From Escherichia phage vB_EcoM_R5505, in sequence record MK373786.1: a stretch of DNA of 64,000 nt; one strand, written 5' to 3'. This document shows, piece by piece, positions 7,861-48,071 of this stretch (the stretch's first letter is position 1; every line of letters begins with the position of its first letter). The notes under the pieces were generated by a model. It did not search any database, was not told where the DNA came from, and worked only from the letters and a program-made list of their open reading frames with translations. The position numbers and the translations under genes are program-made.

Positions 7861-9426
7861 ATGACTATCAAAACTAAAGCTGAACTTTTGAACAAATGGA
7901 AGCCATTACTGGAAGGTGAAGGTTTACCGGAAATTGCTAATAGCAAACAAGCGATTATCGCTAAAATCTTTGAAAACCAGGAAAAAGATTTCCAGACAGC
8001 TCCAGAATATAAAGACGAAAAAATTGCTCAGGCATTTGGTTCTTTCTTAACAGAAGCTGAAATCGGTGGTGACCACGGTTACAATGCTACCAACATCGCT
8101 GCAGGTCAGACTTCTGGCGCAGTAACTCAGATTGGCCCAGCTGTTATGGGTATGGTACGTCGTGCTATTCCTAACCTGATTGCTTTCGATATTTGTGGTG
8201 TTCAGCCGATGAACAGCCCAACCGGTCAGGTATTCGCACTCCGCGCGGTATATGGTAAAGACCCAATCGCTGCCGATGCTAAAGAAGCATTCCACCCAAT
8301 GTATGGTCCAGATGCAATGTTCTCTGGTCAGGGTGCTGCTAAGAAATTCCCAGCTCTGGCTGCTAGCACACAAACCACAGTAGGTGATATCTATACTCAC
8401 TTCTTCCAGGACACTGGTACTGTGTATCTGCAAGCTTCTGCTCAAGTAACAATCGATGCTGGTGCGACTGATGCTGCTAAATTAGATGCTGAAATTAAGA
8501 AACAAATGGAAGCTGGTGCACTGGTAGAAATCGCTGAAGGTATGGCTACTTCTATCGCTGAACTTCAGGAAGGTTTCAATGGTTCTACCGATAACCCATG
8601 GAATGAAATGGGCTTCCGTATCGATAAGCAAGTTATCGAAGCTAAATCTCGTCAGCTGAAAGCTGCTTACTCTATTGAATTAGCACAAGACCTCCGCGCT
8701 GTTCACGGTATGGATGCTGATGCTGAACTGTCTGGTATTCTGGCTACCGAAATCATGCTGGAAATCAACCGTGAAGTTGTTGATTGGATTAACTACTCCG
8801 CACAGGTTGGTAAATCTGGTATGACCCTGACTCCGGGTTCTAAAGCTGGCGTATTTGACTTCCAGGACCCAATCGATATTCGTGGTGCTCGCTGGGCAGG
8901 TGAATCCTTTAAAGCTCTGTTGTTCCAGATTGACAAAGAAGCAGTTGAAATTGCTCGTCAAACCGGTCGCGGCGAAGGTAACTTCATTATCGCTTCCCGT
9001 AACGTAGTTAACGTTCTGGCTTCAGTTGATACCGGCATTTCTTATGCTGCACAAGGTCTGGCTACCGGCTTTAACACTGATACTACCAAGTCAGTATTTG
9101 CTGGTGTTCTGGGTGGTAAATACCGTGTATATATCGACCAGTATGCTAAACAGGATTATTTCACTGTAGGTTATAAAGGTCCGAACGAAATGGATGCTGG
9201 TATTTACTATGCTCCATATGTAGCTCTGACTCCGCTGCGTGGTTCCGATCCGAAGAACTTCCAACCGGTAATGGGATTCAAAACTCGTTACGGTATCGGT
9301 ATCAACCCATTTGCAGAATCCGCTGCTCAGGCTCCGGCTTCTCGCATCCAGAGCGGTATGCCTTCTATTCTGAATAGCCTTGGTAAAAACGCTTACTTCC
9401 GCCGTGTATATGTTAAAGGTATCTAA
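7861..9426 (+). CDS. 23: Major capsid protein
   Basis: 521 aa; near-identical to remembered T4 gp23 (MTIKTKAELLNKWKPLLEGEGLPEIANSKQAII...); late promoter at 7719-7726 inside the 3' end of gene 22. Confidence 0.97.
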   Translation: MTIKTKAELLNKWKPLLEGEGLPEIANSKQAIIAKIFENQEKDFQTAPEYKDEKIAQAFGSFLTEAEIGGDHGYNATNIAAGQTSGAVTQIGPAVMGMVRRAIPNLIAFDICGVQPMNSPTGQVFALRAVYGKDPIAADAKEAFHPMYGPDAMFSGQGAAKKFPALAASTQTTVGDIYTHFFQDTGTVYLQASAQVTIDAGATDAAKLDAEIKKQMEAGALVEIAEGMATSIAELQEGFNGSTDNPWNEMGFRIDKQVIEAKSRQLKAAYSIELAQDLRAVHGMDADAELSGILATEIMLEINREVVDWINYSAQVGKSGMTLTPGSKAGVFDFQDPIDIRGARWAGESFKALLFQIDKEAVEIARQTGRGEGNFIIASRNVVNVLASVDTGISYAAQGLATGFNTDTTKSVFAGVLGGKYRVYIDQYAKQDYFTVGYKGPNEMDAGIYYAPYVALTPLRGSDPKNFQPVMGFKTRYGIGINPFAESAAQAPASRIQSGMPSILNSLGKNAYFRRVYVKGI

Positions 9427-24316: not shown

Positions 24317-24320
24317 CAAT

Positions 24321-24337
24321 GGGGACCTTTCGGTCCC
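24321..24337 (+). terminator. Hairpin terminator after gene 54
   Basis: ggggacc-tttc-ggtcccc followed by atatttttattt. Confidence 0.7.
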
Positions 24338-24344
24338 CATATTT

Positions 24345-24635
24345 TTATTTACGGAATGAAATGAAAGCAGAAACTGAAGCAACTAAACTGTCTTCAATAT
24401 AAACTTCAATTTTTACCGGAGCTTCTGACTCGAATTTACCTGTTACTACACCTTGGAAAATACTTTCAGTTTGTTCTGGCTTTGAAAAATTTTCAGAAGG
24501 AAAAATTCCGAACTTTTTATCTGTTCCAAAAATTTTGATAAATTCATCATAAACTGCTTCATTAAAAGCATTATCAGCAGGAATAACGCCTTCAACTACA
24601 AGTTCTTGACCTAAAAAGCGCAAAGAAGATTTCAT
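24345..24635 (-). CDS. Hypothetical protein (position of T4 alt.-3)
   Basis: 96-aa ORF directly downstream of an early-promoter/stem-loop element. Confidence 0.6.
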   Translation of the reverse strand: MKSSLRFLGQELVVEGVIPADNAFNEAVYDEFIKIFGTDKKFGIFPSENFSKPEQTESIFQGVVTGKFESEAPVKIEVYIEDSLVASVSAFISFRK

Positions 24636-24643
24636 TTTGTGTT

Positions 24644-24696
24644 CCTCATGTTATGTCAGTAAGACTACTATAACACAACACGAGGGACTTGTAAAC
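24644..24696 (-). promoter_or_regulatory. Early promoter embedded in a stem-loop (53-bp element, copy 1)
   Basis: Minus strand GTTTACA-(17)-TGTTATAGT; 9-bp inverted repeat cctcatgtt/aacacgagg; 51/53 identical to 39971-40023. Confidence 0.6.
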
Positions 24697-26753
24697 TACA
24701 TCTTGAACTTTTTAGACATTCCGTTGATGTTAACCAAAGAAGCCAAGATTTGAGAAACTTCGTTTTCCTCTTCTTTTGATTCTTCTACAAGGAATTGATT
24801 AAATCCAGCCATTGGACGAACTTCACCAGTTTCCATTAAATGGTCGCCATCATATACTGATTCTTCTAATTGTTCAGAAGGAGGAACGATTGTACCTTCG
24901 ATTAGATACTTGTTATAAGCAGTTTCTTTCATAAAGTACGTACTTACTTTATTAATCTTCAGTAAAATTCCACGCGGTAGAATAACTTCAGCTTCTGATG
25001 GAAATCCTGATAAATGACCTGGAACGATAACTTTGATTCGCTCAGCTCCTTTAATTACCATACCCACGCTAGTTTCAGCATCTTCAATGGCATATGTAGA
25101 ATGACTACCCATATGCATTAAATCTTCTGCATCAACGGAACCTTCTCCTTCGCCAGAAAATACTGCGCCGGAATCATCTAGAGCCATATAGTTTTTACCA
25201 TGCTCACCGAAGATATTTGGTTTAAGTGATGTCGATACGAAGTTCTTGAAATAGAACATTTTGTTTTCAATGTTATGACGCAAAGTTTTAAAGGTAACTT
25301 CTTGTCCACGGTAAAGTGTAGTTCCTGGAGGAAGAACTGATCCTTTGGCAAAGGCAGAATCCAACGTCTCGATGTGCTTAATAGCTCGTTCCATATATTC
25401 TTCACGGGTAGAATCTGGTTTACCCAAAAGGAACGAGTTCATTTCAACATATGAATCTGCACAATAATCTTCAATTACATCAGATTCAGCTTGGGTTAAT
25501 CCTTTTGGAGTTACTTCGGTGCTTGCGTATTCATATGCCTGGGCAGCAGATTCATTAATCAATTTATAAATGCCATTCATGACAAATTGAATAATAGCTG
25601 TCTTTTCATCTGGCGTAGCTTTAGAACCTTTAACTAAATCATTAATAATTTTCTTAATAACATCAAAGCTATTAGAAATATTAATGTCAGCAAGATCGCT
25701 TAAAATTTTATCAGTTTTATAATCAAAGAATTCTTTATTCTTTAAATATTCTTGAGAACCTTGATATGTTATATCGCTCTGCAACTTGATAGATGGATCA
25801 CGTAAACGTGCATGGGCTAATGCAATATGATTTCGGAAGTTTTCTAGTTCATAATCGTTAGATTTAAAACGAGAAGCACTTCTCATACCACCGATAGCTC
25901 CTTTGCTAAAGTTTGAACCAATCTGGATAACCCCGGAGTTCATCGGACCTTCTGCTTTATATACCGGAACTTTAGATTCAAACTCTTGATATTTCTTGGC
26001 AGCGAAGCTATCACCCTGAAGTGAAGCATCAACAGTAGAATATTGAGCTTGTGCTGCTAATCGACGACTAATTTTAGTTTTCTGAATAACAGCTTGATCA
26101 GTGCGCTTATCATTTTCTAAAGCAATAGAAGCAGCAACAGCGACAGCTTTAGGAACAGCATTACCTGTTTTAACGTCTACATAAACATCACCAACCTTTG
26201 ATTCAACTTTTGTGAATAACTCAGTTGAAATAGGAGGTACACCTGGAATGTCTTCTAAATTGGCATTTTTACGGTAAACCATAATATATGCATACTTTTT
26301 ATCATAGTCCCAGATTTCCTTTAAAAGAACATATCGACCTGCTCCTTTAGTACGTACTAAACGGTCAGCAATAACTTGCATTTGACGAGCTGCGCCATTT
26401 GTTTTACTCTTTAGTACACGGAATAAGCACGCGTCAATTTTGTACTGCTTCATTGTTTGAAGAGCAGTATCAAAAACAGCATTAATGACGCCAATTGGAT
26501 TTCCACCCAAGTTTCTAAGCTTAACCAGCGATAATTTCTCGTTGACACCTATCATTACGATATGCATCATTTTATCGCCTGGTTTAACGTTTTTATTTGT
26601 ATCACCACCAGAGGTGTATGTACAAAATCTAAATCCAGGAAGAACGCTTTCTTCACCGGCTTGAATAGCAAAAATTTGAGGTATTTTATGCTTAGGATTT
26701 AAGTTAACAACCGGCGCCGAAGCGCCGTCAAATAATTCTGTAATAAGTTCCAT
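24696..26753 (-). CDS. Alt-family ADP-ribosyltransferase paralog (downstream copy)
   Basis: 685 aa; N-terminus MELITELFD... and C-terminal ART motifs (YRGQ, FVSTSL, EAEVILPRG) shared with the adjacent paralog; middle region divergent. Confidence 0.85.
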   Translation of the reverse strand: MELITELFDGASAPVVNLNPKHKIPQIFAIQAGEESVLPGFRFCTYTSGGDTNKNVKPGDKMMHIVMIGVNEKLSLVKLRNLGGNPIGVINAVFDTALQTMKQYKIDACLFRVLKSKTNGAARQMQVIADRLVRTKGAGRYVLLKEIWDYDKKYAYIMVYRKNANLEDIPGVPPISTELFTKVESKVGDVYVDVKTGNAVPKAVAVAASIALENDKRTDQAVIQKTKISRRLAAQAQYSTVDASLQGDSFAAKKYQEFESKVPVYKAEGPMNSGVIQIGSNFSKGAIGGMRSASRFKSNDYELENFRNHIALAHARLRDPSIKLQSDITYQGSQEYLKNKEFFDYKTDKILSDLADINISNSFDVIKKIINDLVKGSKATPDEKTAIIQFVMNGIYKLINESAAQAYEYASTEVTPKGLTQAESDVIEDYCADSYVEMNSFLLGKPDSTREEYMERAIKHIETLDSAFAKGSVLPPGTTLYRGQEVTFKTLRHNIENKMFYFKNFVSTSLKPNIFGEHGKNYMALDDSGAVFSGEGEGSVDAEDLMHMGSHSTYAIEDAETSVGMVIKGAERIKVIVPGHLSGFPSEAEVILPRGILLKINKVSTYFMKETAYNKYLIEGTIVPPSEQLEESVYDGDHLMETGEVRPMAGFNQFLVEESKEEENEVSQILASLVNINGMSKKFKM

Positions 26754-26756
26754 GAT

Positions 26757-28847
26757 TTATCCTTGAACGAACTTGTAAGGCATGTTTGTAATATCTATGC
26801 AAGACGCAATAATTCCAAGAGATGATTCTACTTTCTGTTTAACATTTGATGAAACAAATGATGCAAAGTCAACTCTATCTTCTATATCACCTGTCATTGC
26901 AACTACTTCGCCGGTTTCCATTAAACGGTCACCGTCATAAATTACCGATTCGGTGAGTTCTTCTGTGGTCATAACTTCAGCTTGAATGAGTTTTGTATTA
27001 TTAGACGTGGTTCCGTCATTATTAGAAGCATCAGTTATTTTATTAACTTTAACCATCAATCCGCGCGGTAGAATAACTTCAGCTTCTGTTGCTATTCCTA
27101 GACTTCCTGGATATACAACATTAACTTTATGTGCGCCGTCAATTGCCCATCCTATTTGAACTTTAACGTATTCAGGATTTTCTTTATACGCTCTTATTTC
27201 GTTTGGATTAATAGTTATTCCTTCTTCATTTTTATCAACTGTCAATTCATTACGAGCTTCTGGTTCTAAAAGACCAATACCAGCATGTGTAATTCCAAAA
27301 CGCCCAAAAATGATAGGAGTTAAAGAAGTAGATACAAAATTTCTGAAATAGAACACTTTATTTTTAACTAGCGCTTCGTATATAGGAGCAGTCATACTTT
27401 GAGCACGATAAACTGTAATGCCTTCCGGTATGCGGTCACCATTTTCAAAAGCTGAATCTAAATTATTTATAGCAGATTCAATTTCTTTTTCACTCATTAC
27501 ATCATATCGTTCTGGATTGTAACGACCTAAAAGAAGATTATTGATGTCAGTATATCCTGAACCACAATACTCTCTAATGCCGCGCTTTTGTGATGGAGTA
27601 TATTTAGAACCATCACGAGCAATAGTAATATCAATCATTGGACCTGCACCAATTCCGGAAAAGCTATAAATCATTCGTTTGAGGAATTTAGTTTTTGCTG
27701 CGTTCCAGGAATTTTTAGTTATTTCTTCCCAGACTTCATCTGGTTGCCCTTTACGAGTTTTATTATGTTTATCAAGCCAATTATCTTTATATTCTTCAAA
27801 GAATTTATTAATAGCTGCTGCGTATTTCTCTAAACATTTTATTGAAGTAGTTGGTTCATTTTTTATCGCGTTAAAAATTACATCTTTAATTTTTTCGGAA
27901 ACTTCATCAACCTCACTTTTTGAAAAGAATTTATAGTCATAGTGAAGTTCATTCGCAGTTCCTTCGGCAATAATTTTTGCTGCCTTAGTTTTAGAAGCTA
28001 ATGAATTAATTCCAAGCTTCATTTCTTCTGCTTCGGGAATTAAAGGAGCGGTAGCGGGTTTATTGAAATTAGCTGCGGTAGATTCATACTTCTGAAATAA
28101 TTCACTTTCAAATCTAGAAGATTCCAATGACTGACTTTGTGCAATTGCTCTACGGGAAATTTTAACTTTAACGATTACAGCTTGATCAGAACGTTTATCA
28201 TTTTCTTGCGCAATAGATGCTGCAATTGCCTCATTTTTAGTTACTTGAGCTCCAGTATCTTTATTGATATAAACATCACCGACCTTCGATTCAACTTTAG
28301 TAAAGAGCTCGGTACTAATTTCCGGAACCCCTGGAATGTCTTCTAGTGATACATTTTTGCGATGTATAAGAATATATGCATACTTTTTATCGTAATCCCA
28401 GAGTTCCTTAAGAAGGACGTATCTGCCACCTGAACGACTACGGATAAGTCTATCAGCAATAACCTGAATTTGTCGAGCTTGACCAGCGGTTTTAGACTTA
28501 AGAATACGAAGCATACAGGCATCAATTTTATACTGACGCATTGTTTGCATTGCAACAGTAAAAACTGAATTGATATAATTAATTGGGCTTGAACCAAGAC
28601 CTTTCAATTTAGCAATTGAACCTTTAGCAGTTAATGTAAAAGGAACAATATGCATCATTTTATCGCCCATCTTTAAATCGCGATTAGTATCACCTCCAGA
28701 TGTATAGGTACATAAACGAAAGCCTGGTTGTTCAATTGCATCATCAACATGAACTGAAAAAATTTGTGGTATTTTCTTCTTTGGGTTTAAGTTTGTAATC
28801 GGAAGAGTAGTATCTTCGTCAAATAATTCTGTAATGAGTTCCATCAT
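26757..28847 (-). CDS. alt: Alt-family ADP-ribosyltransferase (upstream copy, probably the alt orthologue)
   Basis: 696 aa (695 from the second Met); R-S-ExE ART motifs YRAQ, FVSTSL, EAEVILPRG; minus-strand TATAAATA at 28868-28875 upstream; which paralog is canonical alt is not certain. Confidence 0.85.
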   Translation of the reverse strand: MMELITELFDEDTTLPITNLNPKKKIPQIFSVHVDDAIEQPGFRLCTYTSGGDTNRDLKMGDKMMHIVPFTLTAKGSIAKLKGLGSSPINYINSVFTVAMQTMRQYKIDACMLRILKSKTAGQARQIQVIADRLIRSRSGGRYVLLKELWDYDKKYAYILIHRKNVSLEDIPGVPEISTELFTKVESKVGDVYINKDTGAQVTKNEAIAASIAQENDKRSDQAVIVKVKISRRAIAQSQSLESSRFESELFQKYESTAANFNKPATAPLIPEAEEMKLGINSLASKTKAAKIIAEGTANELHYDYKFFSKSEVDEVSEKIKDVIFNAIKNEPTTSIKCLEKYAAAINKFFEEYKDNWLDKHNKTRKGQPDEVWEEITKNSWNAAKTKFLKRMIYSFSGIGAGPMIDITIARDGSKYTPSQKRGIREYCGSGYTDINNLLLGRYNPERYDVMSEKEIESAINNLDSAFENGDRIPEGITVYRAQSMTAPIYEALVKNKVFYFRNFVSTSLTPIIFGRFGITHAGIGLLEPEARNELTVDKNEEGITINPNEIRAYKENPEYVKVQIGWAIDGAHKVNVVYPGSLGIATEAEVILPRGLMVKVNKITDASNNDGTTSNNTKLIQAEVMTTEELTESVIYDGDRLMETGEVVAMTGDIEDRVDFASFVSSNVKQKVESSLGIIASCIDITNMPYKFVQG

Positions 28848-28867: not shown

Positions 28868-28875
28868 TATTTATA
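28868..28875 (-). promoter_or_regulatory. Late promoter TATAAATA (alt paralogs)
   Basis: Plus TATTTATA 28868-28875, followed on the minus strand by GAGAGG RBS and the alt ATG. Confidence 0.6.
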
Positions 28876-33215: not shown

Positions 33216-33254
33216 GGTACAGGTATATAATATCATATCCTGTACCAAAGTAAA
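33216..33254 (-). promoter_or_regulatory. Early promoter with -10 inside a stem-loop
   Basis: 8-bp inverted repeat ggtacagg/cctgtacc around the minus-strand TATTAT; GTTTAC at 33249-33254. Confidence 0.5.
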
Positions 33255-33257
33255 CAA

Positions 33258-33604: not shown

Positions 33605-33647
33605 TTTGTGTAAGATAATACTATCACAAAGGAACTATACTGTAAAC
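33605..33647 (-). promoter_or_regulatory. Early promoter with -10 inside a stem-loop
   Basis: 6-bp inverted repeat tttgtg/cacaaa around the minus-strand TAGTAT; GTTTAC at 33642-33647. Confidence 0.5.
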
Positions 33648-36669: not shown

Positions 36670-36708
36670 GGTAGAGCTATAATATCACAACTCTACCATA
36701 AAGTAAAC
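36670..36708 (-). promoter_or_regulatory. Early promoter with -10 inside a stem-loop
   Basis: 7-bp inverted repeat ggtagag/ctctacc around the minus-strand TATTAT; GTTTAC at 36703-36708. Confidence 0.5.
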
Positions 36709-39118: not shown

Positions 39119-39468
39119 TTAGAAAGGTCCTGGATGTCTTCTGCGAACTTGTTGAAGGAGTTGTTGATTTGTTTTTCAACCAATCCTGGCTTATGAGCCA
39201 CCACATCCGCCTTCTTTGCGTCTTTGCGCAGTTTTTCATTTTCACGCTCAATAGCAGCAATTGCCTCACGATTTTTATTATTCATCGCATCAATATAATT
39301 ATACTGAATTCGCAAATTATTTAATGCTAAGGCGTTTTCATTGGCCGTTTTTGTAATTTCAGTAACCGATGTTTCTAATCTTTCTACCTTATTTTTTAAA
39401 ATAATAGATGTTCCACCAAATACTATTACAAGTAATAGCAAACCTGCTGTCGTATTACTTAATTGCAT
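39115..39468 (-). CDS. Putative membrane-anchored coiled-coil protein
   Basis: 117 aa; hydrophobic N-terminal helix then K/E-rich heptad-like region. Confidence 0.55.
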   Translation of the reverse strand: MQLSNTTAGLLLLVIVFGGTSIILKNKVERLETSVTEITKTANENALALNNLRIQYNYIDAMNNKNREAIAAIERENEKLRKDAKKADVVAHKPGLVEKQINNSFNKFAEDIQDLSK

Positions 39469-39965
39469 AAAGTTTTAATAACCTCTATAATATCGTCTTG
39501 AGAAAGACCGTTAATTAAAATATGATGTTCCGCCGGAGATTTAGAAATTTTAAAGCATGCCGCAACATCTTCTGCCATATCCGATGCGCTACGATTTGGA
39601 TTACTAATTCCAAGACGATGTTTTCCCGTTAAAGGATTAACGATAATATAGCATTTACAGCTATTGATATGAACATTAGGTTGAGTCTGATTAATGAACA
39701 CTTCACAATCATACTTAGCGAGTTGATTTTCTAAAAAGACTTTCATCTCTTCAACCGCATCAGGAAGCATATCACGGGCTTGCTCAAGACGACGATTTCG
39801 ATATTCTTTAATGGTCGTTTTCCGCTTGACTTGCTTAGCTAAATCTTTCTTAAGATCGGTGATATATCCAACTCGACGATTTCCTTTAAATACAGAAATC
39901 CCATCTGTAGTATCACCGTATGCTTCAACGACCATTTCAGTAGTAATAAGCTGCAAATCCATCAT
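39459..39965 (-). CDS. alc: Probable Alc (host transcription inhibitor)
   Basis: 168 aa (T4 Alc about 167 aa) in the expected position between the pseT cluster and rnlA; called on size and synteny only. Confidence 0.65.
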   Translation of the reverse strand: MMDLQLITTEMVVEAYGDTTDGISVFKGNRRVGYITDLKKDLAKQVKRKTTIKEYRNRRLEQARDMLPDAVEEMKVFLENQLAKYDCEVFINQTQPNVHINSCKCYIIVNPLTGKHRLGISNPNRSASDMAEDVAACFKISKSPAEHHILINGLSQDDIIEVIKTLCN

Positions 39966-39970
39966 AAAGT

Positions 39971-40023
39971 CCTCATGTTATGTCAGTAAGATTACTATAA
40001 CACAACATGAGGGACTTGTAAAC
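39971..40023 (-). promoter_or_regulatory. Early promoter embedded in a stem-loop (53-bp element, copy 2)
   Basis: Same element with perfect 9-bp inverted repeat cctcatgtt/aacatgagg; upstream of the alc-position ORF. Confidence 0.6.
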
Positions 40024-40026
40024 AGC

Positions 40027-41614
<1,588 letters not shown>

Positions 41615-48035: not shown

Positions 48036-48071
48036 AGGGTAATAGTATCACACTACTACCCTGTTGTAAAC
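48036..48071 (-). promoter_or_regulatory. Early promoter with -10 inside a stem-loop
   Basis: 6-bp inverted repeat agggta/taccct around the minus-strand TACTAT; GTTTAC at 48066-48071. Confidence 0.5.

Follow-up and report, generated by a model that had tools for sequence, protein, structure and literature searches.

Why should a phage keep nearly the same few dozen nucleotides ahead of two different genes, and what might the stem-loop do that lies across the promoter within them? The question is raised by two intergenic gaps in Escherichia phage vB_EcoM_R5505 (MK373786.1), of which a stretch of 64,000 nucleotides, here called the window, was analysed after a sequence-only reading had pointed out a twin early-promoter/stem-loop cassette. 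The phage is a Tequatrovirus and a close relative of T4, with its early genes on the minus strand; the 1.2 kb around the copy ahead of alc share 99.4% identity with Escherichia phage AdolfPortmann and 95-99% with several hundred T4-like genomes. T4 itself serves as the standard model for the timing of gene expression in lytic phages. The answer favoured here, probable in our judgement with ample room for doubt, is that each cassette combines an early promoter with a translation initiation region (TIR) and carries an anti-Shine-Dalgarno (anti-SD) sequence in the promoter spacer, an arrangement that would limit translation to transcripts begun at the early promoter and leave RNA read through from upstream silent.

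Two copies of one intergenic cassette

The block common to both copies has the minus-strand sequence GTTTACAAGTCCCTC[A/G]TGTTGTGTTATAGTA[A/G]TCTTACTGACATAACATGAGGA; it is 54 nt long, and the copies are identical at 52 of the 54 positions. Copy 2 (39970..40023, minus strand), located by pattern search and pairwise alignment, runs from GTTTAC to GAGGA between the stop of rnlA, the gene upstream (ORF 40027..41187, minus strand), and the start of alc. Copy 1 (24643..24696, minus strand) lies between the stop of alt and the start of alt.-3, the alt stop codon TAG overlapping the G of GTTTAC. Alignment of the copies gives identity from GTTTAC to GAGGA exactly, with unrelated flanks, and these bounds make the true block one nucleotide longer than the 53 bp first described; the account of near-identical twins at these two places, differing at two positions, is borne out by search and alignment. 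With up to three mismatches allowed, the window contains two matches to the 54-nt pattern, at 39970-40023 (0 mismatches) and 24643-24696 (2 mismatches), against a chance expectation of 0 from 100 shuffles, and no third copy appears in the window at this threshold.

The gap between rnlA and the first ATG of alc (39965) measures 61 nt, as had been stated, and that between alt and alt.-3 measures 60 nt. The cassette fills nearly all of both, beginning 3 nt from the rnlA stop codon and 0 nt from that of alt, and each short intergenic element combines a stop codon, a sigma-70-like promoter, a Shine-Dalgarno sequence (SD) and an ATG. The 168-aa ORF served by copy 2 (39459..39965, minus strand), earlier described by its alc-like position, is alc itself, being 98-100% identical to the annotated Alc of RB14, T2 and others; the T4 annotation uses the second ATG, at 39962. 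Copy 1 serves alt.-3 (96 aa; 24345..24635, minus strand).

Directly upstream of copy 1 is the second of two tandem alt genes (24696..26753, minus strand). The window carries both alt (ADP-ribosyltransferase) paralogues at full length, 685 and 696 aa (24696-26753 and 26757-28847, minus strand); the T4 counterpart is one alt with the short remnants alt.-1 and alt.-2, annotated as an old partial duplication, and the window's second alt and T4 alt.-2 match at their 3' ends. A match to the late-promoter consensus, TATAAATA, occurs at 28868..28875 (minus strand), 21 nt upstream of the first tandem alt gene, and is a likely source of late read-through RNA into alt.-3. Downstream of the alt genes, the first terminator-like site is a bidirectional hairpin resembling an intrinsic terminator (24319..24340), placed after alt.-3, from which it follows that alt transcripts, late ones included, should cross copy 1. 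This hairpin has a perfect, G+C-rich stem of 9 bp with T-runs on both strands and separates the convergent alt.-3 and 54.

Both copies are present in about 499 Tequatrovirus records, T4 included, at 997 places in total, with constant loci in essentially every record. The possibility raised at the outset, that the identity stems from a recent local gene conversion lacking any wider distribution, was checked against these records; with both places filled across Tequatrovirus, a recent local event is ruled out. In vB_EcoM-G28 (MG867727.1), a 131-nt query around the cassette finds three places, not two.

Promoter anatomy

The promoter has the same parts in both copies, namely GTTTACA, a 17-bp spacer, TGT and TATAGT, with the TGT directly before TATAGT providing an extended -10, and in each region it is the top sigma-70-type match. 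Its form, GTTTAC(A/T)-N17-TAnnnT, recurs in early promoters elsewhere in the window and in T4. Copy 2 has its -35, GTTTACA, at 40017..40023 (TTTACA at 40022-40017) and its extended -10, TGT plus TATAGT, at 39994..40002 (hexamer 39999-39994), and the geometry places the predicted transcription start at an A, 7 nt after the -10, at 39987 (+/-1 nt). The corresponding parts of copy 1 are the -35 TTTACA at 24695-24690, the extended -10 at 24667..24675 (TGT plus TATAGT, hexamer 24672-24667) and a start predicted from geometry at 24660, all of these features being on the minus strand. Upstream of the promoters, where an UP region would be expected at about -40 to -60, the sequence is A/T-rich and consists of the end of the rnlA or alt reading frame.

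Early promoters of T4, as reportedly laid out by Liebig & Ruger in 1989, Wilkens & Ruger in 1994 and 1996 and Miller et al. in 2003, lie on the early strand directly upstream of early genes, and the same papers are said to give them a -35 of GTTTAC(A/T), a 17-bp spacer, TGn and a -10 of TAnnnT. As promoters the cassettes do not differ from these, their -10 being TATAGT rather than TATAAT. Judged by its motifs, then, the cassette is a T4-type early (sigma-70) promoter with a predicted start site, and the early-promoter call of the sequence-only reading holds, both as the top match of its region and in sharing the form of other T4 early promoters.

A hairpin that would bury the Shine-Dalgarno sequence

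The 9-bp inverted repeat CCTCATGTT/AACATGAGG is indeed perfect in copy 2; in copy 1 an A is replaced by a G, which still forms a G.U pair in RNA. On the sense RNA, with G.U pairs included, the helix is longer than had been noticed, comprising 13-14 bp and an inner 4 bp, to which copy 2 adds an outer 5 bp, and in both copies it spans the -10 and the predicted start. In copy 2 the 5' arm, or anti-SD, of the main 13-bp helix is CUCAUGUUGUGUU (39999..40011, minus strand; spacer-leader duplex -22.1 kcal/mol, p<0.0005), and the 3' arm GACAUAACAUGAG (39972..39984, minus strand) covers the first three bases of the SD of alc, GAGG (39971..39974, minus strand; 5 nt before the first ATG). The fold of copy 1 pairs the 14-bp 5' arm CCUCGUGUUGUGUU (24672..24685, minus strand) with the 3' arm GACAUAACAUGAGG (24644..24657, minus strand), which includes the SD GAGG at 24647-24644. 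This GAGG, at the 3' end of the cassette, is followed by the ATG after 5 nt at alc and after 8 nt at alt.-3.

As RNA the 5' arm reads CCUC(A/G)UGUUGUGUU and occupies spacer, TGn and the opening base of the -10, while the 3' arm begins just after the predicted start and reaches into the SD. Since the 5' arm lies within these promoter parts, it would be carried by read-through RNA only. Two points are absent from the sequence-only reading: the 3' arm is the SD of the gene downstream, and the 5' arm lies ahead of the predicted start. Taken together, they make a geometry that suggests function.

The stem-loop is real and significant by folding z-scores. The sense fold has -28.2 kcal/mol (z -4.85) in copy 2 and -25.1 kcal/mol (z -4.11) in copy 1, the antisense fold is weaker in both (in copy 1 with a non-significant z of -1.6), and RNA from the predicted +1 is unstructured, with z around 0. 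In read-through RNA the computed probability that the SD is unpaired is at most 0.03, and opening the region from the SD through the AUG would cost 10.5 and 13.1 kcal/mol, against 2.1 and 2.2 kcal/mol in promoter-initiated RNA. The complementarity between spacer and leader beats all 500 shuffles in both window copies. An intrinsic terminator was considered and rejected because a U-tract is missing: the terminator scan has no match in either gap, and the stem is followed by ACUUUAUGAUG in copy 2 and by AACACAAAAUG in copy 1. A search of Rfam 15 yields no family at its gathering score, only chance-level matches (E 0.3-0.55) far below it, and the late-promoter consensus does not occur inside either cassette.

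Conservation across genera and origin of the twin

The rnlA-alc junctions of other Straboviridae genera were compared with that of the window. The arrangement at alc, in which the promoter spacer pairs with the SD, is found in eight genera, seven of them Tevenvirinae genera and the other Bragavirus. Besides Tequatrovirus these are Gelderlandvirus, Karamvirus, the genus represented by a Klebsiella phage (Mexia), Dhakavirus, Bragavirus, Kanagawavirus (IME523) and Winklervirus, and in each of those seven the early-promoter spacer begins with an anti-SD that pairs with the SD-containing leader. The arm sequences differ among genera (ATCTCCGTTT/AAACGGAGAT, TCTCCATTTGGTT/AACCAAATGGAGA, ATCCTCATCAG/CTGATGAGGAT and CCTCTCGTTTTT/AAAAATGAGAGG being examples), and by this comparison the two arms co-vary across the eight genera at alc. 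Duplexes between cognate spacer and leader have energies of -15 to -24 kcal/mol, against about -6 kcal/mol for shuffled spacers and a mean of about -9 kcal/mol for non-cognate ones, and p from spacer shuffling is at most 0.0015 in nine of the 12 alc sequences (2000 shuffles), these being nine orthologues from eight genera. Pairing with the SD at alc is absent in PEi20, in the Mosigvirus PhAPEC2 and in Acinetobacter phage PhT2, of which PEi20 and PhT2 nonetheless keep a stem-loop over the -10. The alc leaders of the eight genera, aligned with MAFFT and folded with RNAalifold, gave a consensus of only -3.6 kcal/mol, with the arms out of register; covariation was judged instead by the alignment-free measures, that is, by spacer shuffles and by cognate against non-cognate duplexes.

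An early promoter precedes alt.-3 in other genera, too. The alt.-3 promoters of Dhakavirus, Mosigvirus, Marfavirus and Moonvirus have a small hairpin wholly within the spacer (CCAC...GTGG) and no anti-SD, and that of Kanagawavirus also shows no anti-SD. Across the genera compared, the anti-SD design appears as ancestral at alc, and by parsimony the simplest reading is an old conversion in the ancestor of Tequatrovirus, with the alc cassette taking the place of the one at alt.-3. Such an exchange would have had its limits in GTTTACA and ATGAGGA, blocks that early cassettes have in common.

The spacer hairpins themselves form a second near-identical cassette family, in which the mini-hairpin CCACAAGGA(T/C)GTGG sits inside GTTTAC...TAnnnT. 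It is found at T4 positions 2458 and 50973 and upstream of alt.-3 in Dhakavirus and Marfavirus, and Moonvirus and Mosigvirus have similar CCAC/GTGG or CACA/TGTG hairpins. The locus of phage VR26 (Gaprivervirus) has an extra Alc-like ORF between rnlA and alc (360-593 of the extracted locus), preceded by a terminator-like hairpin.

Natural variants within Tequatrovirus

Variants of the cassette form a small sample, a pattern search having recovered nine loci from metagenomes and five to six loci per query from IMG/VR. Substitutions in the main helix are of five kinds, namely G.U to A-U, C-G to U.G (seen twice), U.G to U-A, U-A to U.G and G-C to G.U. All five keep the arms paired on the sense RNA, by way of wobble pairs, and leave an A-C mismatch on the other strand or a mismatch in DNA; small as the sample is, the variants favour RNA structure on the coding-sense transcript. 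A DNA cruciform was rejected, as the G.U pattern of the variants fits sense RNA only.

At the two loci the commonest haplotype is one and the same. Variants are mostly confined to a single copy, save for a loop A/G that recurs at both loci, and this privacy means that purifying selection explains the lasting identity of the copies better than ongoing conversion does. The remaining variants fall in the loop, the bulge, the terminal pair or the -10. At the -10, one genome reads TACAGT in its alc copy, and two genomes read a perfect TATAAT in their alt.-3 copy, the loci concerned including IMG/VR contig 2974742932_000001 (extract position 1443 onward); these changes suggest that promoter strength may be tuned independently at the two loci.

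Other early promoters of T4 and the window

The T4 genome supplied a set of 32 early-type promoters on the early strand, each followed by an SD, an ATG and an ORF. In eight of the 32, all SD bases pair upstream of the start site, with p at most 0.004 for the spacer-leader duplex. The genes they precede are motB.2, nrdC.8, regB, denV, alt.-3, 30.8, alc and a small ndd-region ORF; apart from the promoters of alc and alt.-3, they begin at 8218, 53943, 62797, 65413, 130310 and 166807 of NC_000866.4 (minus strand). The regB promoter is notable in that the SD of regB is itself cut by RegB. Of the 32, about 20 show nine or more pairs spanning the -10, many of them leaving the SD untouched, and the early promoters of the window show the same picture. 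On this count, the twin cassette ranks among the strongest examples of a class and is not an oddity. Stem-loops over the -10 that stop short of the SD, together with the lack of SD pairing in PEi20, PhAPEC2 and PhT2, mean that SD occlusion is not the only role of such structures. Stem-loops before ipIII, ipII, denV and orf61.9 were reportedly described by Valerie et al. in 1986.

Further window promoters with inverted repeats across the -10 lie at 33618-33647, 36679-36708, 48042-48071 and 33227-33255 (minus strand). At the promoter beginning at 33647, that of gene 30.8, the spacer TCCTTTGT pairs with the SD ACAAAGGA; the other three have stems of 10-18 bp that end near +1, short of the SD.

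Expression of the flanking genes in T4

Published time courses of T4 transcripts and proteins class alc, alt.-3, regB and denV as early RNA and early protein, rnlA as early RNA and late protein, alt and denA as middle RNA and late protein, and alt.-1 and alt.-2 as middle RNA (PMC9697503 supplement). In RNA-seq at 5 min, a motA amber mutant has alc up 1.61-fold and alt.-3 up 2.38-fold, with rnlA down to 0.68 (PMC6024815 supplement). Read densities at 5 min rise from 4.6 reads/nt at alt.-1 through 9.6 at alt.-2 to 15.6 at alt.-3, and in wild-type T4 they fall from 21 reads/nt at rnlA to 13 at alc, a drop of about 40% (PMC6024815 supplement). These data support an early, MotA-independent expression of alc and alt.-3 beside upstream genes with later kinetics. 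They fit an active MotA-independent promoter in each cassette, in keeping with the early-promoter call made from the sequence, and they likewise fit an output of protein that remains early in spite of later transcription coming in from upstream. The lower density at alc than at rnlA would also agree with partial termination, attenuation or processing at the hairpin, or with differential decay.

Alternative explanations

The cassettes strongly recall the elements named PeSL (Arbiol et al. 2010, PMC2839356; Comeau et al. 2014, PMC4122927), which consist of a stop codon, a strong sigma-70-like promoter, a stem-loop, an SD and an ATG, the stem-loop lying between the -35 and -10 or overlapping the -10 and near-identical copies recurring within a genome. 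They are described as multi-copy, as clustered beside indels in hyperplastic regions, and as working as terminators and recombination sites. Read along those lines (Arbiol 2010, Comeau 2014), the stem-loop would be a terminator or attenuator that insulates the early unit, and the cassette mainly a homology patch for modular recombination. Much of what is seen here would agree with this: the architecture corresponds from the stop codon to the ATG, with the stem-loop over the -10; the PST/T4 PeSL promoter consensus is TTTACW-N17-TAYWAT and close to the cassette promoter; one RB49 stem-loop cut lacZ expression like a strong terminator (PMC2839356); read density in wild-type T4 is lower at alc than at rnlA; and the identity of the twins implies past exchange between cassettes. 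No U-tract follows the stem, however, and the terminator scan is empty in both gaps, while the two copies per genome stay at fixed positions across about 499 genomes with no sign of mobility, and the mostly private variants, save the loop A/G, give little sign of ongoing conversion. A terminator would also leave unexplained that, in eight genera, the 3' arm follows the SD, and we regard this account as unlikely. Less probable still is a role in RNA processing or stability, in which the hairpin would be a nuclease site, a protector of the 3' end of the rnlA or alt message, or a shield of the SD from the RegB endoribonuclease. The length of the helix, which in copy 2 comes, with bulges, to as much as about 22 bp, invites such a role; early SDs are cut by RegB at GGAG, and structure readily inhibits the enzyme (PMC1702504; PMC3014915), and GGAG does occur in the 3' arm of several other genera. 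The Tequatrovirus SD, however, is GAGG within AUGAGGA and contains neither GGAG nor GGAU, and the transcripts of early promoters, which are the targets of RegB, lack the hairpin. Protection from RegB was rejected for Tequatrovirus on the ground that its SD has no GGAG.

The remaining accounts do without the RNA fold. An element acting at the DNA level, with the inverted repeat serving as a cruciform, a protein site, a melting aid or a recombination hotspot, would suit a repeat centred on the -10 and start region and the many stem-loops over the -10 of T4 early promoters, and the authors of the PeSL work do speculate on a DNA-binding recombination factor (PMC2839356). The two to three G.U pairs of the helix, however, would be G-T or A-C mismatches in DNA, the five natural helix variants keep their pairing only on sense RNA, the antisense fold is weaker, and arms that differ between genera offer no common protein site, all of which makes action on DNA very improbable. 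Hardly credible, in our view, is the notion that the cassette is a promoter and nothing more, the complementarity being a by-product of consensus promoter and leader and the identity of the twins a neutral leftover of duplication. The blocks GTTTACA, TGnTAnnnT and ACATGAGGA that T4 early cassettes share do explain part of that identity. A promoter spacer is normally free to vary, yet here it beats 2000 shuffles in nine orthologues from eight genera, as it beats all 500 in the window copies, and, by inspection, no other two early cassettes of the window resemble each other nearly as closely as those two copies.

Proposed mechanism and its implications

Several observations underlie the proposal, namely the sequence anatomy, the significance of the hairpin, its co-varying conservation, the bias of the variants towards pairing on sense RNA and the recurrence of the design across the genome. 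Host RNA polymerase starting from the predicted +1 (39987 and 24660) would produce a leader of about 22-25 nt. Such a leader would hold the 3' arm only, which would leave the GAGG free and allow Alc or Alt.-3 to be made in the first minutes of infection. Read-through RNA, supplied by rnlA transcripts at alc and by middle or late alt transcripts at alt.-3, would carry both arms; without a terminator in either gap, it would fold, bury the SD and go untranslated at alc and alt.-3. Synthesis of Alc and Alt.-3 would in this way be tied to the short period in which the early promoter is active. The translational block on read-through RNA is proposed by analogy with T4 e, soc, 49 and I-TevI and from the computed thermodynamics. 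A possible complication is that ribosomes ending at the rnlA or alt stop codon may transiently melt part of the helix.

A wider proposal, for which we would claim somewhat less than an even chance, is that the spacer anti-SD is a general and conserved T4-like design, shared by roughly one T4 early promoter in four (among them the promoters of regB, denV, alc and alt.-3), that would make translation strictly dependent on the promoter and keep read-through, delayed-early, middle and late RNAs silent. If so, the unexplained PeSL stem-loops, so far read as terminators or recombination sites, would gain a translational function, and a further element would be added to the incompletely understood shut-off of early protein synthesis. 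Alc, which inhibits host transcription, and Alt.-3, RegB, DenV and others would then be limited to the first minutes of infection by two causes, the shut-off of the promoter and the translational silence of later transcripts, and the mechanism of genes e and soc, known with late promoters, would extend to early ones. The spacer of a promoter commonly passes for free sequence; here it would be under constraint at the RNA level. For the annotation and engineering of T4-like therapeutic phages, this would mean that moving or deleting an 'intergenic promoter' alters the translation of the next gene.

Comparison with known systems

The promoter family, the cassette architecture (as PeSL) and the principle of a promoter within a hairpin are already known, the last being textbook T4 biology. 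Full-text searches for an anti-SD at T4 early promoters yielded nothing further than the 2010 reviews and the two PeSL papers, though older subscription literature may describe it; within searchable text, the points without earlier description are the spacer anti-SD itself, the co-variation of its arms in eight genera and its presence in a quarter of T4 early promoters. With PeSLs the cassettes share the composite architecture, the stem-loop over the -10, the near-identical copies and an inferred past exchange between cassettes. Unlike the PeSL family, they number two per genome at fixed loci in about 499 genomes, have no terminator signature and point to one ancient conversion. The stem here also includes the SD, a point that the accessible text of the PeSL papers does not make.

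A hairpin that sequesters a ribosome-binding site and holds an internal promoter was reportedly described by McPheeters et al. in 1986. For T4 e (lysozyme), soc, 49 and I-TevI, the combination of an SD-sequestering helix and an internal promoter is established (PMC3014915). The cassettes resemble these genes in that the SD would be buried in RNA initiated upstream, here by computation, and in that RNA from the internal promoter would lack the 5' arm, here by geometry from the predicted +1. Those four genes have a late promoter (TATAAATA) within the structure, and early read-through RNA is silenced; the promoter here is an early sigma-70 promoter, its -35/-10 spacer contains the 5' arm, and the RNA predicted to be silenced is later read-through RNA. 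With an early promoter in the place of a late one, the temporal sense of the device would be reversed with respect to e, soc, 49 and I-TevI.
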